Sequence record: OR906198.1
DNA: 64,000 nt
Source: Escherichia phage BP32
Strand: one strand, 5' to 3'
The notes beneath the pieces are model-generated. The model was not told the origin of the DNA and made no database searches. It saw nothing but the letters and a program-made list of their open reading frames with translations. Below, piece after piece: positions 11,702 to 37,838 of this stretch. The first letter of the stretch is position 1; each line of letters opens with the position of its first letter. A program made the translations under genes and the position numbers.

Positions 11702-12610
11702 ATGTTTAAACGTAAATCTACTGCTGAACTCGCTGCACAAATGGCTAAACTGGCTGGAAATAAAGGTGGTTTTTCTTCTGAAGATAAAGGCGAGTGGAAA
11801 CTGAAACTCGACAATGCGGGTAACGGTCAAGCAGTAATTCGTTTTCTTCCGTCTAAAAATGATGAACAAGCACCATTCGCAATTCTTGTAAATCACGGTT
11901 TCAAGAAAAATGGTAAATGGTATATTGAAAATTGTTCATCTACCCACGGTGATTACGATTCTTGTCCAGTATGTCAGTACATCAGTAAAAATGATTTGTA
12001 CAACACTGACAATAAAGAGTATGGTCTTGTTAAACGTAAAACTTCTTACTGGGCGAACATTCTTGTAGTAAAAGACCCAGCTGCTCCAGAAAATGAAGGT
12101 AAAGTATTTAAATACCGTTTCGGTAAAAAAATCTGGGATAAAATCAATGCAATGATTGCAGTTGATGTTGAAATGGGCGAAACTCCGGTTGATGTAACTT
12201 GCCCGTGGGAAGGTGCTAACTTTGTACTGAAAGTTAAACAAGTTTCTGGTTTTAGTAACTACGACGAATCTAAATTCCTGAATCAATCTGCGATTCCAAA
12301 CATTGATGATGAATCTTTCCAGAAAGAACTGTTCGAACAAATGGTTGACCTTTCTGAAATGACTTCTAAAGATAAATTCAAATCGTTTGAAGAACTGAGC
12401 ACTAAGTTCAGTCAAGTTATGGGAACTGCTGCTATGGGTGGTGCCGCAGCGACTGCCGCTAAGAAAGCTGATAAAGTTGCTGATGATTTGGATGCATTCA
12501 ATGTTGATGACTTCAAAACAAAAACTGAAGATGATTTTATGAGCTCAAGCTCTGGCAGTTCATCTAGTGCTGATGACACGGACCTGGATGACCTTTTGAA
12601 TGACCTTTAA
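11702..12610 (+). CDS. 32: Single-stranded DNA binding protein gp32
   Basis: [50 protein letters not shown] matches T4 gp32. Confidence 0.95.
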
Positions 12611-12632
12611 TAGATTATATTACTAATTAATT

Positions 12633-12658
12633 GGGGACCCTAGAGGTCCCCTTTTTTA
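12633..12658 (+). terminator. Rho-independent terminator after gene 32
   Basis: ggggacc-ctaga-ggtcccc hairpin followed by TTTTTT. Confidence 0.75.
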
Positions 12659-12682
12659 TTTCAAAAATTTTTTCACAAAACG

Positions 12683-12714
12683 GTTTACATCCTTGTCATT
12701 CCATGGTACTATAC
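12683..12714 (+). promoter_or_regulatory. T4-early-like promoter (GTTTAC -35, tactatac -10 region)
   Basis: GTTTAC at 12683-12688 with A/T-rich upstream and -10-like element 18 nt downstream. Confidence 0.4.
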
Positions 12715-12755
12715 AACTATCGGCAATACTGCTGATGATTAAAGAGGAAAATAAT

Positions 12756-12983
12756 ATGGCTAAAGTTGATATTGACATCGTTGATTTTGAATATATTGAA
12801 GAAATTATTCGTAATCGTTATCCTGAACTTAGAATCACAAATGTACAAGATTCTAAGTTTTGGAGTATTCAAATCGTTATTGAAGGTCCTCTTGAAGACC
12901 TCACCCGCTTTATGGCTAATGAATATTGTGATGGTATGGATGCTGAAGACGTAGAATTTTACATGGGACTGATCGAACAATAA
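12756..12983 (+). CDS. Small early protein of unknown function (frd.x region)
   Basis: ATG at 12756 with AGAGGA 6 nt upstream; 75 aa. Confidence 0.55.
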
Positions 12984-15971: not shown

Positions 15972-16235
15972 ATGATTTTACGATTTAAAGATACTTCTGG
16001 TGTAGTTCTTTTTACACTTCCTAACCCAAGCGAGTTAGAAGTTCCAGGACCAAATCAGCCTATTATCATTTATGGCAAAAAATATTATACTCATAAAATG
16101 ACTCGTGAGTATTTTGATAATAAAATTTCTACGGTTAAAACTTCTTCAGATTGTTACTATGATATTACTGTTTTAACGGAAAAACAATATGACGAATTAT
16201 CACCGCGCGGGCCGTCTATGCCAGGTAGTGAATAA
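15972..16235 (+). CDS. Hypothetical protein (nrdA-upstream small ORF, 87 aa)
   Basis: ATG at 15972 with GAGAGGA upstream. Confidence 0.55.
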
Positions 16236-16515
16236 ATATAAATCCGACTTTGATGTTAATATTCACCGTGGTACATTTTGGGGAAATTACGTCGGTAAAG
16301 ATGCTGGCAGCCGGGAGGCTGCCATTGAATTATTCAAAAAAGATTTTATACGTCGAATTAAATCCGGAGAAATAACTAAAGCACATTTAGAGCCTTTACG
16401 TGGAATGAGGCTAGGATGCACATGTAAACCAAAGCCGTGTCATGGTGATATAATAGCTCATATAGTTAACCGATTGTTTAAAGACGATTTTCAAGTTGAG
16501 GACTTATGCAATTAA
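16189..16515 (+). CDS. Hypothetical protein with [12 protein letters not shown] cysteine/histidine motif (start uncertain; GTG at 16228 is an alternative)
   Basis: ORF overlapping upstream ORF end and nrdA start. Confidence 0.5.
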
Positions 16516-18770
16516 TTAATGTTATCAAAAGTAGTGGTGTTTCTCAAAGCTTTGACCCGCAAAAAATTATTAAAGTTTTATCTTGGGCAGCTGAAGGAAC
16601 ATCTGTAGATCCTTATGAATTATATGAAAATATTAAATCATATCTCCGTGATGGAATGACAACTGATGACATTCAGACTATTGTCATTAAGGCTGCTGCG
16701 AATTCTATTTCAGTTGAAGAGCCTGATTATCAATACGTGGCTGCACGCTGTTTAATGTTTGCTCTTCGTAAACATGTGTACGGACAATATGAACCACGTT
16801 CATTTATTGACCATATTTCTTACTGTGTAAATGAAGGTAAATACGACCCTGAACTGTTGTCAAAATATTCAGCAGAAGAAATTACATTTTTAGAATCAAA
16901 AATTAAGCATGAGCGGGATATGGAATTTACTTATTCCGGGGCGATGCAATTAAAAGAAAAATATCTCGTTAAAGATAAAACCACTGGTCAAATTTATGAA
17001 ACTCCGCAGTTTGCATTTATGACTATTGGAATGGCATTGCATCAAGATGAACCTGTTGACAGATTAAAACATGTTATTCGTTTTTATGAAGCAGTATCTA
17101 CTCGACAGATTTCATTGCCAACTCCTATTATGGCTGGCTGTCGTACTCCAACTCGGCAATTTAGCTCATGTGTTGTTATTGAAGCAGGCGATTCGCTGAA
17201 GTCTATCAATAAAGCTTCTGCTTCAATTGTTGAGTATATTTCTAAACGAGCCGGAATCGGTATTAACGTTGGTATGATTCGTGCCGAAGGTTCTAAGATT
17301 GGCACAGGTGAAGTACGCCATACCGGTGTTATTCCTTTTTGGAAACATTTTCAGACTGCTGTTAAATCATGTTCACAGGGCGGAATTCGTGGCGGCGCTG
17401 CTACTGCTTATTATCCTATTTGGCATTTGGAAGTTGAAAATCTTCTCGTTTTGAAAAATAACAAAGGTGTAGAAGAAAACCGTATCCGTCATATGGATTA
17501 TGGCGTCCAGCTGAATGACCTAATGATGGAACGTTTTGGAAAGAACGACTACATTACTTTGTTCAGTCCGCATGAAATGGGTGGCGAGCTTTATTATTCT
17601 TATTTTAAAGACCAAGACCGTTTCCGCGAATTATACGAAGCAGCAGAAAAAGACCCTAATATTCGCAAAAAGCGTATTAAAGCTCGTGAACTGTTTGAAT
17701 TGCTCATGACTGAACGATCAGGAACAGCAAGGATTTATGTACAGTTCATTGATAATACGAATAACTATACTCCATTTATTCGTGAAAAGGCACCGATTCG
17801 TCAGAGTAACCTGTGTTGTGAAATTGCTATTCCAACAAATGATGTGAATAGTCCTGATGCTGAAATTGGATTGTGTACTCTCTCTGCATTCGTACTGGAT
17901 AATTTTGACTGGCAAGACCAAGATAAAATTAATGAATTGGCAGAAGTCCAAGTTCGTGCTCTTGATAATCTTTTGGATTATCAAGGATATCCAGTTCCTG
18001 AAGCAGAAAAAGCTAAAAAGCGTCGTAACCTCGGTGTAGGTGTTACTAACTATGCAGCTTGGCTGGCAAGTAACTTTGCTTCTTATGAAGATGCTAACGA
18101 TTTAACACATGAACTATTTGAGAGATTACAGTATGGACTCATTAAAGCATCCATTAAACTCGCCAAAGAAAAAGGACCTTGCGAATATTATTCAGACACT
18201 CGTTGGTCTCGAGGCGAATTACCTATCGACTGGTACAATAAAAAGATTGACCAAATCGCAGCTCCAAAATACGTTTGCGACTGGTCGTCGCTGCGGGAAG
18301 ACCTTAAGCTCTTTGGCATCCGTAATAGCACATTATCAGCACTTATGCCATGTGAGTCATCTTCCCAAGTTTCTAACAGTACAAACGGTATCGAGCCTCC
18401 ACGTGGACCAGTCTCTGTTAAAGAATCAAAAGAGGGCTCCTTTAATCAAGTCGTGCCCAATATTGAGCATAACATAGACCTCTATGATTATACATGGAAA
18501 TTAGCTAAGAAAGGTAATAAACCTTATCTTACGCAGGTAGCTATTATGCTGAAATGGGTATGTCAATCAGCTTCAGCGAATACATATTATGACCCGCAGA
18601 TTTTTCCAAAAGGAAAGGTTCCAATGTCAATAATGATTGATGACCTTTTGTATTTTTGGTATTATGGCATTAAAAACTTCTATTATCATAATACCCGTGA
18701 TGGTTCTGGTACTGATGATTATGAAATAGAAACTCCAAAAGCTGAAGATTGTTCATCCTGTAAATTATGA
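16506..18770 (+). CDS. nrdA: Ribonucleotide reductase large subunit
   Basis: 754 aa, same length as T4 NrdA; class I RNR features in translation. Confidence 0.93.
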   Translation: MQLINVIKSSGVSQSFDPQKIIKVLSWAAEGTSVDPYELYENIKSYLRDGMTTDDIQTIVIKAAANSISVEEPDYQYVAARCLMFALRKHVYGQYEPRSFIDHISYCVNEGKYDPELLSKYSAEEITFLESKIKHERDMEFTYSGAMQLKEKYLVKDKTTGQIYETPQFAFMTIGMALHQDEPVDRLKHVIRFYEAVSTRQISLPTPIMAGCRTPTRQFSSCVVIEAGDSLKSINKASASIVEYISKRAGIGINVGMIRAEGSKIGTGEVRHTGVIPFWKHFQTAVKSCSQGGIRGGAATAYYPIWHLEVENLLVLKNNKGVEENRIRHMDYGVQLNDLMMERFGKNDYITLFSPHEMGGELYYSYFKDQDRFRELYEAAEKDPNIRKKRIKARELFELLMTERSGTARIYVQFIDNTNNYTPFIREKAPIRQSNLCCEIAIPTNDVNSPDAEIGLCTLSAFVLDNFDWQDQDKINELAEVQVRALDNLLDYQGYPVPEAEKAKKRRNLGVGVTNYAAWLASNFASYEDANDLTHELFERLQYGLIKASIKLAKEKGPCEYYSDTRWSRGELPIDWYNKKIDQIAAPKYVCDWSSLREDLKLFGIRNSTLSALMPCESSSQVSNSTNGIEPPRGPVSVKESKEGSFNQVVPNIEHNIDLYDYTWKLAKKGNKPYLTQVAIMLKWVCQSASANTYYDPQIFPKGKVPMSIMIDDLLYFWYYGIKNFYYHNTRDGSGTDDYEIETPKAEDCSSCKL

Positions 18771-21618: not shown

Positions 21619-21648
21619 GTTTACAAGTCCCTCATGTTGTGTTATAGT
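21619..21648 (+). promoter_or_regulatory. T4-early-like promoter upstream of alc (GTTTAC ... TATAGT), part of a duplicated cassette
   Basis: GTTTAC 21619-21624, -10-like 21643-21648, 18 nt spacer. Confidence 0.5.
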
Positions 21649-21676
21649 AATCTTACTGACATAACATGAGGACTTT

Positions 21677-27609: not shown

Positions 27610-27617
27610 TATAAATA
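27610..27617 (+). promoter_or_regulatory. T4-type late promoter motif TATAAATA downstream of gene 31
   Basis: Exact TATAAATA on plus strand. Confidence 0.4.
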
Positions 27618-27756
27618 ATAATATGAATTGGGTGTCGGAATAATAAGTTAACCGAACAATTCTACGTGGTAGTCTACAACTGAGAGATCTGTCGAAAGAA
27701 GATGAAATTCAGAAGAACGTGACTACCGAGTTTTAATCTCTAACGAGAATTTTTAA

Positions 27757-28005
27757 ATGATTAAACAATTACAACACGCTCTTGAACTGCAACGAAACGC
27801 ATGGAATAATGGTCACGAAAACTATGGCGCATCTATTGATGTTGAAGCCGAAGCTCTTGAAATCCTGCGTTATTTCAAACATCTGAATCCTGCTCAAACC
27901 GCATTAGCTGCTGAGCTCCAGGAAAAAGATGAACTTAAGTATGCTAAGCCTCTGGCTTCTGCTGCACGAAAAGCAGTTCGTCACTTTGTGGTAACACTGA
28001 AGTAA
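27757..28005 (+). CDS. rIII: rIII lysis inhibition accessory protein
   Basis: 82 aa MIKQLQHALELQRNAWNNGHENYGASIDVEAEALEILRYFKHL matches T4 rIII. Confidence 0.9.
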   Translation: MIKQLQHALELQRNAWNNGHENYGASIDVEAEALEILRYFKHLNPAQTALAAELQEKDELKYAKPLASAARKAVRHFVVTLK

Positions 28006-28199
28006 TTTATTGGAGATTCACTGCCTTAGTGTGAGCTAAAATCGAGGAGCCGTCGAACTTTGTTTTACGGTGTACCTCTTGAATGTTGACGAGGTTTATG
28101 GTTATCCTGTCGGTAAATATTCAAAACCTAAGTACCCCTTGAGGGCTTTCGCAGGCAATGCCAATAAGTCCTGCATTTTCATTTAAAAGAGAATTTATA

Positions 28200-28376
28200 A
28201 TGGCAAAACAAGCTAAAGCAAAGAAAGCAGTTGAAAAGAAAGTTGGTGATTCTAAACGCGCTGGTTACAAGCGTGGGTCGAACTCTCGTATCAATCAAAC
28301 TGTTGAGAAGATCATGCGCCGAGCACGTGCGGTTCTTCGAGATGATGCTTCTCGTTTTGGTAAGCAGAAAGCATAA
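28200..28376 (+). CDS. Small lysine/arginine-rich protein (58 aa; alternative start 28158)
   Basis: MAKQAKAKKAVEKKVGDSKRAGYKRGS...; followed by strong terminator. Confidence 0.5.
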   Translation: MAKQAKAKKAVEKKVGDSKRAGYKRGSNSRINQTVEKIMRRARAVLRDDASRFGKQKA

Positions 28377-28381
28377 GTTGA

Positions 28382-28410
28382 GGACTCCTTCGGGAGTCCT
28401 TTTTTATTTT
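28382..28410 (+). terminator. Rho-independent terminator
   Basis: ggactcc-ttcg-ggagtcc hairpin followed by TTTTTTATTTT. Confidence 0.8.
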
Positions 28411-28429
28411 CCAAAGATTGCATAAAGTT

Positions 28430-28462
28430 GTTTACAGTATAGTTCCTTTGTGATAGTATTAT
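28430..28462 (+). promoter_or_regulatory. T4-early-like promoter with tcctttgt/acaaagga inverted repeat around the -10
   Basis: GTTTAC 28430-28435; gatagtattat -10 region. Confidence 0.45.
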
Positions 28463-31925: not shown

Positions 31926-33386
31926 ATGATTCTTAAAATTCTGAATGAAATAGCATCTATTGGATCAACTAAGCAGAAGCAAGCAATTCTTGAAAAGAAT
32001 AAAGATAATGAATTGCTTAAACGAGTATATCGTCTGACTTATTCTCGTGGGTTACAGTATTATATTAAGAAATGGCCTAAACCTGGTATTGCTACCCAGA
32101 GTTTTGGAATGCTGACCATTACCGATATGCTTGACTTCATTGAATTCACGTTAGCTACTCGGAAATTGACTGGAAATGCAGCAATTGAGGAATTAACTGG
32201 ATATATCACTGATGGTAAAAAGGATGATGTTGAAGTTTTGCGTCGAGTGATGATGCGAGACCTTGAATGCGGTGCTTCAGTATCTATTGCAAACAAAGTT
32301 TGGCCAGGTTTAATTCCTGAACAACCTCAAATGCTGGCAAGTTCTTATGATGAAAAAGGCATTAGTAAGAATATCAAGTTTCCAGCCTTTGCGCAATTAA
32401 AAGCAGATGGAGCTCGGTGTTTTGCTGAAGTCCGAGGCGATGAATTAGATGATGTTCGTCTTTTATCACGAGCTGGTAATGAATATCTAGGATTAGATCT
32501 TCTTAAGGAAGAGTTAATCAAAATGACTGCTGAAGCCCGCCAGATTCATCCAGAAGGTGTGTTAATTGATGGCGAATTGGTATACCATGAGCAAGTTGAA
32601 AAAGAGCCAGAAGGCCTAGATTTTCTTTTTGATGCTCCTGAAATCAGTAAAGCTAAAGAATTCGCCGAAGTAGCTGAATCACGTACTGCTTCTAATGGAA
32701 TCGCTAATAAATCTTTAAAGGGAACTATTTCAGAAAAAGAAGCTCAATGCATGAAGTTTCAGGTCTGGGATTATGTCCCGTTGGTAGAAATATACTGTCT
32801 TCCGGCGTTTCGTTTAAAATATGATGTACGTTTTTCTAAACTAGAACAAATGGCATCAGGATATGATAAAGTAATTTTAATTGAAAACCAGGTAGTAAAT
32901 AACCTAGATGAAGCTAAGGTAATTTATAAAAAGTATATTGACCAAGGTCTTGAAGGTATTATTCTCAAAAATACCGATGGATTGTGGGAAAATGCTCGTT
33001 CAAAAAATCTCTATAAATTTAAAGAAGTAATTGATGTTGATTTAAAAATTGTAGGAATTTATCCTCACCGTAAAGACCCTACTAAAGCAGGTGGATTTAT
33101 TCTTGAATCAGAGTGTGGAAAAATTAAAGTAAATGCAGGTTCAGGCTTAAAAGATAAAGCCGGTGTAAAATCACATGAACTTGACCGTACTCGCATTATG
33201 GAAAACCAAAATTATTATATTGGAAAAATTCTAGAGTGCGAATGCAACGGTTGGTTAAAATCTGATGGTCGCACTGATTACGTTAAATTATTTCTTCCAA
33301 TTGCGATTCGTTTACGTGAAGATAAAACTAAAGCTAATACATTCGAGGATGTATTTGGTGATTTTCATGAGGTAACTGGTCTATGA
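31926..33386 (+). CDS. 30: ATP-dependent DNA ligase gp30
   Basis: MILKILNEIASIGSTKQKQAILEKNKDNELLKRVYRLTYSRGLQYYIKKWPKPG matches T4 DNA ligase; 486 aa. Confidence 0.96.
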   Translation: MILKILNEIASIGSTKQKQAILEKNKDNELLKRVYRLTYSRGLQYYIKKWPKPGIATQSFGMLTITDMLDFIEFTLATRKLTGNAAIEELTGYITDGKKDDVEVLRRVMMRDLECGASVSIANKVWPGLIPEQPQMLASSYDEKGISKNIKFPAFAQLKADGARCFAEVRGDELDDVRLLSRAGNEYLGLDLLKEELIKMTAEARQIHPEGVLIDGELVYHEQVEKEPEGLDFLFDAPEISKAKEFAEVAESRTASNGIANKSLKGTISEKEAQCMKFQVWDYVPLVEIYCLPAFRLKYDVRFSKLEQMASGYDKVILIENQVVNNLDEAKVIYKKYIDQGLEGIILKNTDGLWENARSKNLYKFKEVIDVDLKIVGIYPHRKDPTKAGGFILESECGKIKVNAGSGLKDKAGVKSHELDRTRIMENQNYYIGKILECECNGWLKSDGRTDYVKLFLPIAIRLREDKTKANTFEDVFGDFHEVTGL

Positions 33387-33571
33387 AAGCTTACTTAGAA
33401 ACAATTGTCGTGGCTCAAAAAGAAGGTGGAGATGTTTCTACTTCTGTATCACAAGTCATTCTCGAATTTGTAGATGCATATGCTTATAATAAATTTACAG
33501 AAACATTTGATGCCTATGAAAAAGGACCAAAGTTTGAAATATATCGTACTCTCTTACCACTAGATTACTAA
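33383..33571 (+). CDS. Hypothetical protein (62 aa) overlapping ligase stop
   Basis: ATGA overlap with ligase. Confidence 0.45.
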   Translation: MKAYLETIVVAQKEGGDVSTSVSQVILEFVDAYAYNKFTETFDAYEKGPKFEIYRTLLPLDY

Positions 33572-33600
33572 AGGCCTTCGGGCCTTTAATTTTATAAATA
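33571..33600 (+). promoter_or_regulatory. Hairpin aaaggcc-ttcg-ggccttt followed by late promoter TATAAATA (33593-33600) upstream of alt
   Basis: Perfect stem plus exact late promoter motif about 25 bp before the alt ATG. Confidence 0.55.
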
Positions 33601-33623
33601 GAATAAACACTAGAGAGGATATG

Positions 33624-35717
33624 ATGGAACTCATTACAGAATTATTTGACGAAGATACTACTCTTCCGATTACAAACTTAAATCCAAAGAAGAAAATACC
33701 ACAAATTTTTTCAGTTCATGTCGATGACGCAATTGAACAACCAGGCTTTCGTTTATGTACCTATACATCTGGAGGTGATACTAATCGCGATTTAAAAATG
33801 GGCGATAAAATGATGCATATTGTTCCTTTTACATTAACTGCTAAAGGTTCAATTGCTAAATTAAAAGGTCTCGGTCCAAGCCCAATTAATTACATCAATT
33901 CAGTTTTTACTGTTGCAATGCAGACGATGCGCCAGTATAAAATTGATGCCTGCATGCTTCGTATTCTTAAGTCTAAAACTGCTGGTCAAGCTCGACAAAT
34001 TCAAGTTATTGCTGATAGACTTATCCGTAGTCGTTCAGGTGGCAGATACGTCCTTCTTAAGGAACTCTGGGATTATGATAAAAAGTATGCATATATTCTT
34101 ATACATCGCAAAAATGTATCACTAGAAGACATTCCAGGAGTTCCGGAAATTAGTACCGAGCTCTTTACTAAAGTTGAATCGAAGGTCGGCGATGTTTATA
34201 TCAATAAAGATACCGGAGCTCAAGTAACTAAAAATGAGGCAATTGCAGCATCTATTGCACAAGAAAATGATAAACGTTCTGACCAAGCTGTTATTGTTAA
34301 AGTTAAAATTTCCCGTAGAGCAATTGCACAAAGCCAGTCATTGGAATCTTCTAGATTTGAAAGCGAATTATTCCAGAAGTATGAATCTACTGCAGCTAAT
34401 TTCAATAAACCTGCTACAGCTCCTTTAATTCCCGAAGCAGAAGAAATGAAGCTTGGAATTAATTCATTAGCTTCTAAAACTAAGGCAGCAAAAATTATTG
34501 CCGAAGGAACCGCAGATGAACTTCACTATGACTATAAATTCTTTTCAAAAAGTGAGGTTAATGAAGTTTCTGAAAAAATTAAAGATGTAATTCTTAATGC
34601 GATTAAAAATGAACCAACTACTTCAATAAAATGTTTAGAGAAATACGCAGCAGCTGTTAATAAATTCTTTGAAGAATATAAAGATAATTGGCTTGATAAA
34701 CATAATAAAACCCGTAAAGGACAGCCAGATGAAGTCTGGGAAGAAATAACTAAAAATTCCTGGAACGCAGCAAAAACTAAATTCCTCAAACGAATGATTT
34801 ATAGCTTTTCTGGAATTGGTGCAGGTCCAATGATTGATATTACTATTGCCCGTGATGGTTCTAAATATACCCCATCGCAAAAGCGCGGCATTAGAGAGTA
34901 TTGTGGATCAGGATATACTGACATCAATAATCTTCTTTTAGGCCGCTACAATCCAGAACGATATGATGTAATGAGTGAAAAAGAAATTGAATCTGCGATA
35001 AATAATTTAGATTCAGCCTTTGAAAATGGTGACCGTATACCAGAAGGCATTACAGTTTATCGTGCTCAAAGTATGACTGCTCCTATATACGAAGCACTAG
35101 TTAAAAATAAAGTGTTCTATTTCAGAAATTTTGTATCTACTTCTTTAACTCCTATCATTTTTGGACGTTTTGGAATTACACATGCTGGTATCGGTCTTTT
35201 AGAACCAGAAGCTCGTAATGAATTAACAGTTGATAAAAATGAAGAAGGAATAACTATTAATCCAAACGAAATAAGAGCGTATAAAGAAAATCCTGAATAC
35301 GTTAAAGTTCAAATAGGATGGGCAATTGATGGAGCTCATAAAGTTAATGTTGTATATCCAGGAAGTCTCGGAATAGCAACTGAAGCTGAAGTTATTCTAC
35401 CGCGCGGATTGATGGTCAAAGTTAATAAAATAACTGATGCTTCTAATAATGACGGAACAACAACTAATAATACAAAACTCATTCAAGCTGAAGTTATGAC
35501 TACGGAAGAACTCACCGAATCAGTAATTTATGATGGTGACCGTCTAATGGAAACTGGTGAAGTAGTTGCAATGACAGGTGATATTGAAATAGAAGACAGA
35601 GTTGACTTTGCATCATTTGTTTCATCAAATGTTAAACAAAAAGTAGAATCATCTCTTGGAATTATTGCGTCTTGCATAGATATTACAAACATGCCTTACA
35701 AGTTCGTTCAAGGATAA
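33624..35717 (+). CDS. alt: Alt-family mono-ADP-ribosyltransferase, copy 1 (packaged internal head protein)
   Basis: MELITELFDEDTTLPITNLNPKKKIPQIFSVHVDD N-terminus matches T4 Alt; ART motifs VYRAQ, FVSTS, TEAEVILPRG. Confidence 0.9.
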   Translation: MELITELFDEDTTLPITNLNPKKKIPQIFSVHVDDAIEQPGFRLCTYTSGGDTNRDLKMGDKMMHIVPFTLTAKGSIAKLKGLGPSPINYINSVFTVAMQTMRQYKIDACMLRILKSKTAGQARQIQVIADRLIRSRSGGRYVLLKELWDYDKKYAYILIHRKNVSLEDIPGVPEISTELFTKVESKVGDVYINKDTGAQVTKNEAIAASIAQENDKRSDQAVIVKVKISRRAIAQSQSLESSRFESELFQKYESTAANFNKPATAPLIPEAEEMKLGINSLASKTKAAKIIAEGTADELHYDYKFFSKSEVNEVSEKIKDVILNAIKNEPTTSIKCLEKYAAAVNKFFEEYKDNWLDKHNKTRKGQPDEVWEEITKNSWNAAKTKFLKRMIYSFSGIGAGPMIDITIARDGSKYTPSQKRGIREYCGSGYTDINNLLLGRYNPERYDVMSEKEIESAINNLDSAFENGDRIPEGITVYRAQSMTAPIYEALVKNKVFYFRNFVSTSLTPIIFGRFGITHAGIGLLEPEARNELTVDKNEEGITINPNEIRAYKENPEYVKVQIGWAIDGAHKVNVVYPGSLGIATEAEVILPRGLMVKVNKITDASNNDGTTTNNTKLIQAEVMTTEELTESVIYDGDRLMETGEVVAMTGDIEIEDRVDFASFVSSNVKQKVESSLGIIASCIDITNMPYKFVQG

Positions 35718-35720
35718 ATC

Positions 35721-37778
35721 ATGGAACTTATTACAGAATTATTTGACGGCGCTTCGGCGCCGGTTGTTAACTTAAATCCTAAGCATAAAATACCTCAAAT
35801 TTTTGCTATTCAAGCCGGTGAAGAAAGCGTGCTTCCTGGATTTAGATTTTGTACATACACCTCTGGCGGTGATACAAATAAAAACGTTAAGCCAGGCGAT
35901 AAAATGATGCATATCGTAATGATAGGCGTTAATGAGAAACTATCATTAGTTAAACTTAAAAACTTGGGTGGAAATCCAATTGGTGTCATTAATGCGGTTT
36001 TTGATACTGCTCTTCAAACAATGAAGCAGTATAAAATTGACGCATGTCTATTCCGCGTACTAAAGAGTAAAACAAACGGTGCAGGTCGGCAAATGCAAGT
36101 TATTGCCGACCGTTTAGTACGTACTAAAGGAGCAGGTCGATATGTTCTTTTAAAAGAAATCTGGGACTATGATAAAAAATATGCATATATTATGGTTTAC
36201 CGTAAAAATGCCAATTTAGAAGACATTCCAGGTGTACCTCCTATTTCAACTGAGTTATTCACAAAAGTTGAATCAAAGGTTGGTGATGTTTATGTAGACG
36301 TTAAAACAGGTAATGCTGTTCCTAAAGCTGTCGCTGTTGCTGCTTCTATTGCTTTAGAAAATGATAAGCGCACGGATCAAGCTGTTATTCAGAAAACTAA
36401 AATTAGTCGTCGATTAGCAGCTCAAGCTCAATATTCTACTGTCGATGCTTCACTTCAGGGTGATAGCTTCGCTGCTAAGAAATATCAAGAGTTTGAATCT
36501 AAAGTTCCGGTATATAAAGCAGAAGGACCAATGAACTCTGGCGTTATTCAGGTTGGTTCAAACTTCAGCAAAGGAGCTATCGGTGGTATGAGAAGTGCTT
36601 CTCGTTTTAAATCTAGTGATTATGAACTCGAAAGCTTCCGAAATCATATTGCATTGGCTCATGCACGTTTACGTGATCCATCTATCAAGTTACAGAGCGA
36701 TATAACATATCAAGGTTCTCAAGAATATTTAAAGAATAAAGAATTTTTTGATTATAAAACTGATAAAATTTTAAGCGATCTTGCTGACATTAATATTTCT
36801 AATAGCTTTGATGTTATTAAGAAAATTGTCAATGATTTAGTTAAAGGTTCTAAAGCCACACCAGATGAAAAGGTAGCTATTGTTCAATTTGTCATGAATG
36901 GCGTTTATAAATTGATTAATGAGTCTGCTTCTCAAGCGTATGAATATGCAAGTACTGAAGTAACTCCAAAAGGATTAACTCAGGCTGAGTCTGATGTAAT
37001 TGAAGATTATTGTGCAGATTCATATGTTGAAATGAACTCGTTCCTTTTAGGTAAACCGGATTCTACCCGTGAAGAATATATGGAACGAGCTATTAAACAC
37101 ATCGAGACAATGGATTCTGCCTTTGCCAAAGGGTCAGTTCTTCCTCCAGGAACTACGCTTTACCGTGGCCAAGAAGTTACCTTTAAAACTTTACGTCATA
37201 ATATTGAAAATAAAATGTTCTATTTCAAGAACTTCGTATCCACATCACTTAAACCAAATATCTTCGGTGAGTATGGTAAAAACTATATGGCCCTAGATGA
37301 TTCCAGTGCAGTATTTTCTGGTGAAGGAGAAGGTTCAGTTGATGCTGAAGATTTAATGCATATGGGTAGTCATTCTGCATATGCTAATGAAGATGCTGAA
37401 ACTAGCGTGGGTATGGTAATTAAAGGAGCTGAGCGAATCAAAGTTATCGTTCCAGGTCATTTATCAGGATTTCCATCAGAAGCTGAAGTTATTTTACCGC
37501 GTGGAATTTTGCTGAAGATTAATAAAGTGAGTACGTACATGATGAAAGAAACTGCTTATAACAAGTATCTAATAGAAGGCACAATCGTTCCTCCTTCTGA
37601 ACAATTAGAAGAATCGGTATATGACGGCGACCATCTAATGGAAACTGGTGAAGTTCGTCCAATGGCTGGATTTAATCAATTCCTTGTAGAAGAATCAAAA
37701 GAAGAGGAAAACGAAGTTTCTCAAATCTTGGCTTCTTTGGTTAACATCAACGGAATGTCTAAAAAGTTCAAAATGTAG
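35721..37778 (+). CDS. Alt-family mono-ADP-ribosyltransferase, copy 2 (diverged paralog)
   Basis: MELITELFDGASAPVVNLNPKHKIPQIF N-terminus; ART motifs LYRGQ, FVSTS, SEAEVILPRG; central region diverged from copy 1. Confidence 0.85.
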   Translation: MELITELFDGASAPVVNLNPKHKIPQIFAIQAGEESVLPGFRFCTYTSGGDTNKNVKPGDKMMHIVMIGVNEKLSLVKLKNLGGNPIGVINAVFDTALQTMKQYKIDACLFRVLKSKTNGAGRQMQVIADRLVRTKGAGRYVLLKEIWDYDKKYAYIMVYRKNANLEDIPGVPPISTELFTKVESKVGDVYVDVKTGNAVPKAVAVAASIALENDKRTDQAVIQKTKISRRLAAQAQYSTVDASLQGDSFAAKKYQEFESKVPVYKAEGPMNSGVIQVGSNFSKGAIGGMRSASRFKSSDYELESFRNHIALAHARLRDPSIKLQSDITYQGSQEYLKNKEFFDYKTDKILSDLADINISNSFDVIKKIVNDLVKGSKATPDEKVAIVQFVMNGVYKLINESASQAYEYASTEVTPKGLTQAESDVIEDYCADSYVEMNSFLLGKPDSTREEYMERAIKHIETMDSAFAKGSVLPPGTTLYRGQEVTFKTLRHNIENKMFYFKNFVSTSLKPNIFGEYGKNYMALDDSSAVFSGEGEGSVDAEDLMHMGSHSAYANEDAETSVGMVIKGAERIKVIVPGHLSGFPSEAEVILPRGILLKINKVSTYMMKETAYNKYLIEGTIVPPSEQLEESVYDGDHLMETGEVRPMAGFNQFLVEESKEEENEVSQILASLVNINGMSKKFKM

Positions 37779-37807
37779 TTTACAAGTCCCTCGTGTTGTG
37801 TTATAAT
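37778..37807 (+). promoter_or_regulatory. T4-early-like promoter (GTTTAC ... TATAAT), second copy of the duplicated cassette
   Basis: GTTTAC 37778-37783, TATAAT 37802-37807, 18 nt spacer. Confidence 0.5.
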
Positions 37808-37838
37808 AATCTTACTGACATAACATGAGGAACACAAA

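Follow-up and report, generated by a model that had tools for sequence, protein, structure and literature searches.

What fills the largest gene-free gap in a 64-kb region of an intensively studied type of phage? The question is raised by a stretch of 64,000 nucleotides of Escherichia phage BP32 (OR906198.1), hereafter the window, in which 194 bp separate rIII from gene 30.9. A first-pass annotation made from the letters of the sequence had drawn attention to this spacer, noting several local stem-loops within it and a very basic open reading frame (ORF) of 58 aa and a strong terminator behind it, and had suggested a structured 5′ leader or a small RNA together with a nucleic-acid-binding protein. 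The gap was found to hold an H-type pseudoknot that is supported by covariation among T4-type relatives. The element is absent from the RNA family database Rfam 15 and has no description in the full-text literature searched, the coverage of which was partial, prior mention being possible. As a predicted structure it is solid, and it is unexpected in so well studied a phage. The locus comprises the following features, the positions first given for which were all correct:

27757-28005, + strand: rIII, lysis-inhibition accessory gene and upstream cistron; 82-aa ORF, phrog_1457 match (4.7e-44), rIII in T4 and IME339
28006-28199: non-coding spacer between rIII and 30.9, 194 bp
28200-28376, + strand: gene 30.9, 58 aa plus stop, annotated 30.9 in T4

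A conserved pseudoknot between rIII and 30.9

Junctions between rIII and 30.9 were gathered from IMG/VR contigs and GenBank records and yielded 42 distinct spacers of 120 to 416 bp (relatives are denoted below by locus numbers such as L008). The spacers are mosaics of recognizable blocks that are present, absent or reordered, and one block of ~45 nt occurs in all 42. This block is predicted to fold as an H-type pseudoknot in which the 5′ strand of the second helix (S2) sits inside the loop closed by the first (S1):

28088-28132, + strand: H-type pseudoknot, the conserved core, with covariation in both helices
28088-28094 with 28106-28111: pseudoknot S1, GACGAGG (one bulged G) with CCTGTC
28095-28103 with 28125-28132: pseudoknot S2, TTTATGGTT with AACCTAAG
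28112-28124: pseudoknot loop 3, GGTAAATATTCAA, A-rich, conserved as CG(T)TAAA...AAAC

Between lineages S1 varies as GAC/GTC, GTC/GAC, GTG/CAC and GGC/GCC, and S2 as TTAGTAGTT/AACTACTAA, GTTGGTT/AACCAAC, TTGTGAG/CTCACAA, CAAGGTT/AATCTTG and GATGG/CCATC. Covariance analysis across T4-type relatives, which the first-pass annotation had proposed, was performed on two alignments, one hand-padded (27 distinct sequences), in which the S2 register was partly fitted, and the other model-made (36 distinct sequences) and unadjusted for the bulge of the T4-type sequences. The pseudoknot was supported in both. Standard pairs occupied 87.7% of cells in the hand-padded alignment vs 70.7% after column shuffling, and 80.7% vs 68.1% in the model-made alignment, with 0/500 shuffles reaching the observed value in each case. 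Cells in which both sides had changed numbered 68 compared to 23.6 after shuffling (hand-padded) and 79 compared to 35.0 (model-made), and the respective covariation scores were 0.441 against 0.168 and 0.355 against 0.161. Compensatory change was evident in 8 of the 15 pairs in each alignment. When the partner strand was slid by 1-3 columns pairing dropped to 31-50% in the hand-padded and 32-51% in the model-made alignment. The two helices of the hand-padded alignment were 87.5% (helix 1) and 87.8% (helix 2) paired with four pairs changed on both sides in each, and the corresponding values in the model-made alignment were 88.6% and 75.5%. In a test that does not depend on register, the own-strand duplex energy beat random re-pairing in 5000/5000 permutations for each helix. 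On sequence comparison alone, the element thus has the crossing helices, both maintained in evolution, that characterize an H-type pseudoknot.

The structure belongs to the sense-strand RNA because G.U cells outnumbered A.C cells by 25 to 7; likewise, 87.7% of cells were paired on the sense strand vs 83.1% on the opposite strand. The comparative data show that the predicted pseudoknot and several hairpins described below are under selection as sense-strand RNA. Two S2 pairs adjoining S1 vary on one side only and may form loop 1 (L1) instead, in which case the geometry would be sterically ordinary (S1 of 6 bp, L1 of ~2 nt, S2 of ~7 bp, L2 of 2 nt and L3 of 13 nt).

Model R1 found a single copy of the pseudoknot in the window (64 bits; next match E = 0.39), and neither the motif nor the other spacer modules are repeated elsewhere in the window. 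No Rfam 15 covariance model matched the spacer even at E ≤ 10 in a search of 611 nt, and the equivalent spacers of relatives also matched none. Matches to Atu_C8 and Phe_leader were discarded as terminator look-alikes over the 30.9 terminator, and a match to CRISPR-DR60 was sub-threshold and lay over the rIII ribosome-binding site (RBS). Two further candidates were rejected. A third helix, in which a conserved ATGATG ahead of the pseudoknot pairs with loop 3, showed inconsistent covariation, and a recoding signal for rIII would have to account for a pseudoknot that in L008, L021 and L026 begins 5-10 nt past the stop codon but in the window 82 nt past it.

The spacer as a chain of RNA modules

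Around the pseudoknot the spacer reads as a chain of RNA modules that vary, switch order or sit within hairpin loops. The modules in the window, read from sequence listings without tool counts, are as follows:

28018-28034, + strand: hairpin A1, stem TCAC/GTGA, conserved 9-nt loop TGCCTTAGT
28042-28082, + strand: long hairpin A2, TCGAGGAG-CCGT-C-GAAC / GTTT-T-ACGG-...-CCTCTTGA, inner part in the minimum free energy (MFE) fold
28135-28146, + strand: small hairpin C, CCC-CTTGA-GGG, within conserved GTACCCCTTGAGGGCTT
28151-28174, + strand: hairpin D, stem GCAGG/CCTGC, conserved 14-nt loop CAATGCCAATAAGT
28176-28193, + strand: weak hairpin that could cover the Shine-Dalgarno-like GAGAA of 30.9, TTTTC-ATTTAAAA-GAGAA

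The 4-bp stem of A1 varies on both sides (CA/TG in the window, CG/CG in L028 and TG/CA in L011) and its loop is kept as CTACC..AGT. In A2 the G-C pair 28052/28068 is A-T in L005 and L007, with the intermediates G.T in L003 and A.C in L004. Indels are located in loops and linkers, and insertions respect the helices: the 44 nt by which T4 exceeds the window fall exactly in the apical loop of A2, where they prolong the helix (CTGTC...GACAG), and the bigger inserts of other Tequatroviruses, Mosigviruses and relatives lie in the single-stranded linker that joins A2 to the pseudoknot. Hairpin C occurs in 16 sequence variants, all with a stem of 3-4 bp (CCC/GGG, CCTC/GAGG, GCCT/AGGC, GCT/AGC), and is positioned 3′ of the pseudoknot or, in some relatives, before it at the 5′ end of the spacer. 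Hairpin D is the stem-loop gcagg-caatgccaataagt-cctgc that had been singled out initially, and it is present as described. In L022 and L026 its stem is GAACTGG/CCAGTTC and the loop is kept as C(A/G)(A/G)TG(C/T)CAATAAG(T/A), and in other lineages its apical part is swapped for other sequences. The hairpin at 28176-28193 could cover the GAGAA of 30.9, and analogous anti-Shine-Dalgarno/Shine-Dalgarno pairs in relatives read CTCC..GGAAG and CCTC..GAGG.

Exchange of modules extends beyond the spacer. The 147-bp spacer between gene 31 and rIII holds a structured module (27668-27727; GGTAGT...CTGTCGAAAGAAG...GAAGAACGTG...ACTACC, inner stem CTGA/TCAG) that in Klebsiella-type phages is found inside hairpin D of the rIII-30.9 spacer with the stems GGGAGC/GCTCCC and CCGA/TCGG. 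As the same module sits either 5′ of rIII or in hairpin D, RNA modules have moved between two neighboring intergenic regions, and this shuffling bears on the evolution of structured RNA. A search of IMG/VR with the invariant 20-mer of module E returned only the same T4-like contigs and one chance match in a coding gene.

An additional module of 136 nt (ACGGCAAGTGCATGC...GCTAACGGTGTGCAACAGATAAGAG), which is not in the window, was observed in the rIII-30.9 spacer of many relatives, for example at L008:1275-1410 and in L009, L011-L013, L015-L018, L020, L021, L025, L027, L052, L057, L060, L064-L068 and L069. RNAalifold predicted 40 pairs in seven helices, 18 of the pairs with compensatory changes, and a GAAA-capped hairpin. 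Each of 404 GenBank phage records, among them those of the Tequatroviruses LZ9 and slur14, carries the module once in its genome; it is unannotated and has no Rfam match. Separately, two GGAG motifs, the core site of the RegB endoribonuclease, were noted in the window's spacer at 28012-28015 and 28047-28050, the first of which reads GGTG in Mosigvirus-type spacers.

Gap size and genomic setting

The window is Tequatrovirus DNA in reversed orientation relative to the T4 map, with the gene order cd, 31.2, 31.1, 31, rIII, 30.9, 30.8 and onward to 30. For all features compared its gene coordinates are those of IME339 (NC_055741), the annotation of which could be used directly. By that annotation the 194-bp spacer is the largest unannotated gap in the 64 kb, which agrees with its initial description as the longest non-coding stretch, and gaps of 148 bp and 147 bp come second and third. 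An apparent gap of 270 bp (16253-16522) was ruled out as the longest since it is occupied by a 108-aa ORF (16189-16515), just 5′ of nrdA, that is absent from the IME339 RefSeq annotation. The 194-bp spacer is also the shortest Tequatrovirus form of the region.

Transcription signals

The promoter/terminator scan returned zero sigma-70-like promoters and zero + strand terminators in 28006-28199, and no late promoter TATAAATA was seen by eye inside the spacer. The initial statement that the 194 bp hold no convincing promoter was therefore accurate, and the proposal of a small RNA as a discrete gene gains no support from the sequence, as the spacer supplies neither promoter nor terminator. The signals identified around it are a late promoter TATAAATA at 27610-27617, 5′ of rIII, and two features beyond 30.9:

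28380-28407, + strand: intrinsic terminator, GAGGACTCC-TTCG-GGAGTCCTT followed by a T-run; found in the terminator scan, annotated terminator in SA20RB
28431-28459, + strand: T4 early-type promoter for 30.8, TTTACA-17-TAGTAT with upstream TG; annotated T4 early promoter in SA20RB

The terminator is the canonical hairpin plus U-run recorded behind the ORF, with a 9-bp stem that includes five G-C pairs, a UUCG loop and a T-run, for which the span 28380-28401 is also given. It has the tail TTTTTTATTTT and an energy of -15.4 kcal/mol and by sequence is a predicted intrinsic terminator, and its stem covaries in relatives (GGGAACC.../...GGTTCCC, GGGAGAC/GTCTCCC). A stem-loop terminator joined to an early promoter forms the PeSL cassette of T4-type phages, for which PeSL-mediated shuffling has been documented (Arbiol et al., 2010; PMC2839356). 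By sequence the segment 28380-28459 has this layout, with a stem-loop and a sigma-70-like early promoter in one intergenic unit; the 194-bp spacer itself, with neither a promoter-like site nor a + strand terminator, does not.

Co-transcription of rIII and 30.9, ending at the terminator after 30.9, is suggested by the lack of internal signals, the late promoter at 27610-27617, the class of the two RNAs, both of which are 'early' in a T4 time course (supplement, PMC9697503), and the distribution of the spacer. The pseudoknot occurs in each of the 42 distinct spacers in which rIII and 30.9 adjoin without intervening transcription signals. Acinetobacter phages that have rIII but not 30.9 possess almost no spacer and no pseudoknot. 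In L096 (1076-1216), a terminator hairpin ending in a T-run and a TTGACA...TATTAT promoter stand, in that order, between gp31 and rIII on one side and the 30.9-like gene on the other, and a sigma-70-like promoter lies directly 5′ of the 30.9 homologue in L094 (1-203) and L065 (upstream of 894). From this distribution, the structured spacer is confined to enterobacterial Tevenvirinae that have no transcription signal between rIII and 30.9, and a predicted transcriptional insulator fills the same position elsewhere.

Gene 30.9 and its product

The gp30.9 protein of the window is 100% identical to that of T4 (NP_049823) and matches phrog_1427, a family of unknown function, over residues 1-58, which is the whole protein (E 2.3e-31). 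No family in Pfam or NCBIfam was assigned to the 58-aa protein, and a search of the PDB returned as its sole similarity a non-significant helix match to SlmA (E 0.18). The gene is located directly 3′ of rIII in the cd-31-rIII-30.x-30 cluster of T4, IME339 and more than 40 loci, and is among the most conserved small genes of the cluster: gp30.9 retains 97% identity where RIII retains only 67%. Matches were obtained by tblastn in ~1000 phage records from Escherichia, Klebsiella, Enterobacter, Salmonella, Yersinia, Serratia, Citrobacter and Edwardsiella phages. The first-pass annotation had tied its proposal to conservation of the region or the ORF in relatives, and both are conserved.

The description of the product as very basic was apt, as it contains 11 K and 8 R vs 5 D/E, with a pI of 11.4 and a net charge of ~+13.5. 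Its invariant core comprises SKRA.YK..SN.R plus R41, A42 and V45 in a helix. In the AlphaFold model (mean pLDDT 68) residues 29-53 form the one helix, and the Lys/Arg-rich N-terminal half is disordered. When 1.8 billion representatives were searched exhaustively with a profile, only 17 clusters emerged; apart from one spurious repeat protein, these are small basic phage proteins of 20-97 aa, most of them sharing an N-terminal MAK..K and a SKRAGYKR core. By composition alone, gp30.9 is a plausible nucleic-acid-binding protein. A K/R-rich protein of 58 residues yields few usable tryptic peptides. For this reason it is uninformative that gp30.9 carries no class in the protein table of the T4 time course (supplement, PMC9697503).

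Divergent 30.9 homologues are 65-92 aa long and some have a Lys-rich C-terminal extension. Misleading automatic names were noted for gp30.9 or the spacer in several GenBank and UniRef records, for example '1,4-alpha-glucan (glycogen) branching enzyme, GH-13-type', 'putative head morphogenesis protein' (T2, AP018813) and 'uncharacterized 11.1 kDa protein'.

A possible role for the spacer

We give about an even chance to the reading in which the spacer acts in cis as an intercistronic leader and controls the processing of the 30.9 mRNA, its stability or its translation. According to this proposal, rIII and 30.9 would form one transcription unit in which the 194 bp are transcribed as the intercistronic spacer, and the mRNA spacer would fold as the independent modules A1, A2, pseudoknot, C, D and the weak RBS hairpin, with the pseudoknot as the invariant core and the remaining modules exchangeable. 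The spacer would uncouple 30.9 from rIII after transcription, via a processing site and/or protected RNA ends, and may set the accessibility of the 30.9 RBS. It would thereby take over, at the post-transcriptional level, the part played by a terminator plus promoter in other lineages. In the pseudoknot, the conserved loops are a putative protein-binding site for which gp30.9, RIII and ribosomal protein S1 are candidates, the latter two because RIII, the product of the gene on the upstream side of the pseudoknot, is reported to bind S1 (PMC9409239). If the element does control 30.9 or bind gp30.9, it would open an orphan T4 gene directly to experiment.

Several observations weigh against this reading. 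The folding energy of the window's spacer is unremarkable, with z = -1.16 on the + strand and -1.59 on the - strand, and as single-sequence folding is no better than chance the 'several local stem-loops' are by themselves no evidence of structure. The structured 5′ leader that had been suggested thus draws support from covariation in the pseudoknot and hairpins, including the one originally quoted, but not from the fold of the single sequence. Measures of pair count and pair type in the hand-padded alignment were not above shuffles (348/500 and 352/500), and the column-shuffle control ignores kinship among the sequences. Between the pseudoknot and the start of 30.9 lie anywhere from ~55 to ~300 nt, and module order is permuted, which disfavors a simple operator that overlaps the RBS. 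The 30.9 homologues of L065, L094 and L096 have no pseudoknot, and so 30.9 expression does not, in general, depend on the element. The function is inferred throughout, from sequence comparison.

Alternative explanations

The main rival, which we consider rather unlikely, holds that the spacer or the pseudoknot core is cut from the rIII-30.9 mRNA and accumulates in stable form, either as an RNA or in a ribonucleoprotein (RNP) with gp30.9, to act in trans on host or phage RNA metabolism instead of on expression of 30.9. The transcript may indeed give rise to a stable processed fragment. The position of the pseudoknot is free relative to both genes and the modules are permuted, as independent RNA domains would behave; loop sequences are conserved along with the helices; the elaborate 136-nt module of relatives goes beyond what a leader would normally require; the conservation and basic charge of gp30.9 are out of the ordinary; and the neighboring protein binds S1. 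Yet the spacer carries neither its own promoter nor its own terminator, has no second copy and no evident target complementarity, and no stable T4 RNA from rIII-30.9 is mentioned in the literature searched, the coverage of which was partial. A bolder form of this idea, to which only a small probability is attached, is that the pseudoknot and the travelling modules, including the 136-nt RNA of ~400 genomes, are the RNA half of an unrecognized phage RNP or autoregulatory pair of which gp30.9 is the protein half, with a possible link via RIII to S1 and a possible use in manipulating translation or RNA decay in T-even phages. It is similarly improbable that the spacer is a mosaic scrambled by recombination during cassette exchange between co-infecting T-even phages, with hairpins that are mostly incidental or tolerated and serve no particular purpose except to keep two genes apart. 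Spacer length is 194, 241-245, 289 or 295 bp among phages whose RIII and gp30.9 proteins are 100% identical, with blocks swapped at fixed junctions, module H lies 5′ of rIII in the window and 5′ of 30.9 in Klebsiella-type phages, the MFE z-score is not significant and PeSL-mediated shuffling is documented (PMC2839356). However, a functionless mosaic is contradicted by the universal retention of a covarying pseudoknot, with compensatory helices and conserved loops across genera; moreover, insertions respect the helices, and T4 genomes are otherwise tightly packed, and the rIII-30.9 gap is the largest in 64 kb.

The remaining alternatives are much weaker candidates. That the pseudoknot is a ligand-sensing riboswitch aptamer for 30.9 with a layout like preQ1-I, SAM-II or guanidine-III is very improbable: the compact H-type fold with its A-rich loop 3 and conserved loop nucleotides, and a downstream hairpin that could cover the 30.9 RBS, fit the idea, but no Rfam riboswitch model matches, the highly variable distance to the RBS with unrelated modules between is hard to square with an expression platform, and 30.9 has no metabolic link. 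Equally slight is the likelihood that the spacer is a small protein-coding gene or its decaying remnant, such as the 58-aa ORF of SA20RB and wV7 or an extended '11.1 kDa' form of 30.9. Hypothetical proteins are annotated under the spacer in several GenBank records, a 97-aa '11.1 kDa protein in Gp30-rIII intergenic region', an old form of 30.9, is still in UniRef, and the window has a 38-aa ORF with a GTG start and a 72-aa ATG extension of 30.9. Nevertheless, the frame annotated as an ORF in SA20RB hits a stop at 28037 in the window, and indels of 44, 5, 1 and 1 nt between the window and T4 spacers disrupt all frames. The 38-aa ORF has no PHROG or Pfam match, the ATGATG ahead of the pseudoknot opens ORFs of anything from 1 to 35 codons across phages and is missing in some, and the spacers of relatives hold no conserved ORF, frames being interrupted by the stop and indels. 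Every gp30.9 homologue starts at the same MAK(Q/K), and substitutions track base-pairing rather than codon position. A hidden or decayed gene is ruled out by the in-frame stop, the indels, the inconsistent ORFs and the lack of a family match; the spacer is non-coding. Least probable of all is that the conserved inverted repeats act as DNA, whether as an origin of replication or as a site of recombination or protein binding. The ATK48 record labels a 10-bp 'ori type 2 repeat' just 5′ of 30.9, but pairing is strand-asymmetric, the motif is not repeated elsewhere in the window, and a crossing pseudoknot topology is meaningless for a DNA duplex.

Comparison with known elements

Gene 30.9, its terminator and the PeSL-type junction are already known, and the pseudoknotted spacer is best placed among the structured mRNA leaders and intercistronic elements of phages. 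Its best precedent within this phage, by analogy, is the leader pseudoknot of gene 32, and the proposed intercistronic leader would be the second pseudoknotted leader in T-even phages after it. Both elements are H-type, belong to T-even mRNAs as 5′ leader structures, are conserved among T-even phages and lie 5′ of a gene for a nucleic-acid-binding-type protein, away from the RBS rather than over it. The gene 32 pseudoknot likewise has no Rfam model (PMC10690425). The two nonetheless have no detectable sequence relationship, and R1 found nothing else significant in the window, which includes gene 32 (12074-12982). The spacer element has a far more variable spacing to the start codon and lies between cistrons, not at an mRNA 5′ end. 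Furthermore, gene 32 autoregulation consists of specific binding of the product to its leader and repression of its own translation, the counterpart of which for gp30.9 and the spacer is putative.

A looser analogy may be drawn with lambda N and nutL. Lambda N binds boxB in nutL and represses its own translation. As in the present locus, a small very basic protein is encoded just 3′ of a long structured leader with conserved loops, but no boxA/boxB-like motif was identified in the spacer, gp30.9 has no sequence relationship to N and the resemblance is one of layout only. We know of no antitermination role in T4.

With PeSL cassettes the relationship is one of neighborhood. The 30.9-30.8 junction (28380-28459) has exactly the same layout, the rIII-30.9 junction of divergent relatives has a terminator plus promoter, and the rIII-30.9 spacer is also a site of modular exchange between phages. 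In contrast to the cassettes, the 194-bp spacer contains neither of these signals and its core pseudoknot makes sense as RNA only. Like the small pseudoknot riboswitches preQ1-I (RF00522), SAM-II and guanidine-III, the element is ~45 nt long with H-type topology and an A-rich loop 3; unlike them, it has no Rfam match, a much longer S2 (7-9 bp) and no fixed expression platform. Intercistronic stabilizers and processing elements, such as the REP hairpins of malEFG, are also stable structures of variable sequence between cistrons, through which the two halves of one transcript can differ in fate. However, REP-type elements are simple hairpins that often are repeated in the genome, whereas the spacer holds one single-copy pseudoknot, tied to its locus, with conserved loops.

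The rIII leader and other observations

The rIII leader (27610-27756) has a layout that is common across genera. The late promoter TATAAATA abuts the gene 31 stop codon. Next come a hairpin, TAYGYGG and a second hairpin, the apical insert of which varies, and the last element is a hairpin that pairs the Shine-Dalgarno element, which is TCTC/GAGA at 27737-27748 in the window and CCTC/GAGG in most relatives.

Elsewhere in the window, two tandem genes for Alt-like ADP-ribosyltransferases (33260-37414) contain repeated segments that are ~73-82% identical with a spacing of ~2094 bp. A 54-nt early-promoter-like segment (GTTTACAAGTCCCTC...TATAGTAATC...) is present twice, at 21619-21672 and 37778-37831, with 96% identity over a separation of 16 kb, and is the kind of regulatory cassette that has been proposed to mediate shuffling in T4-type phages.

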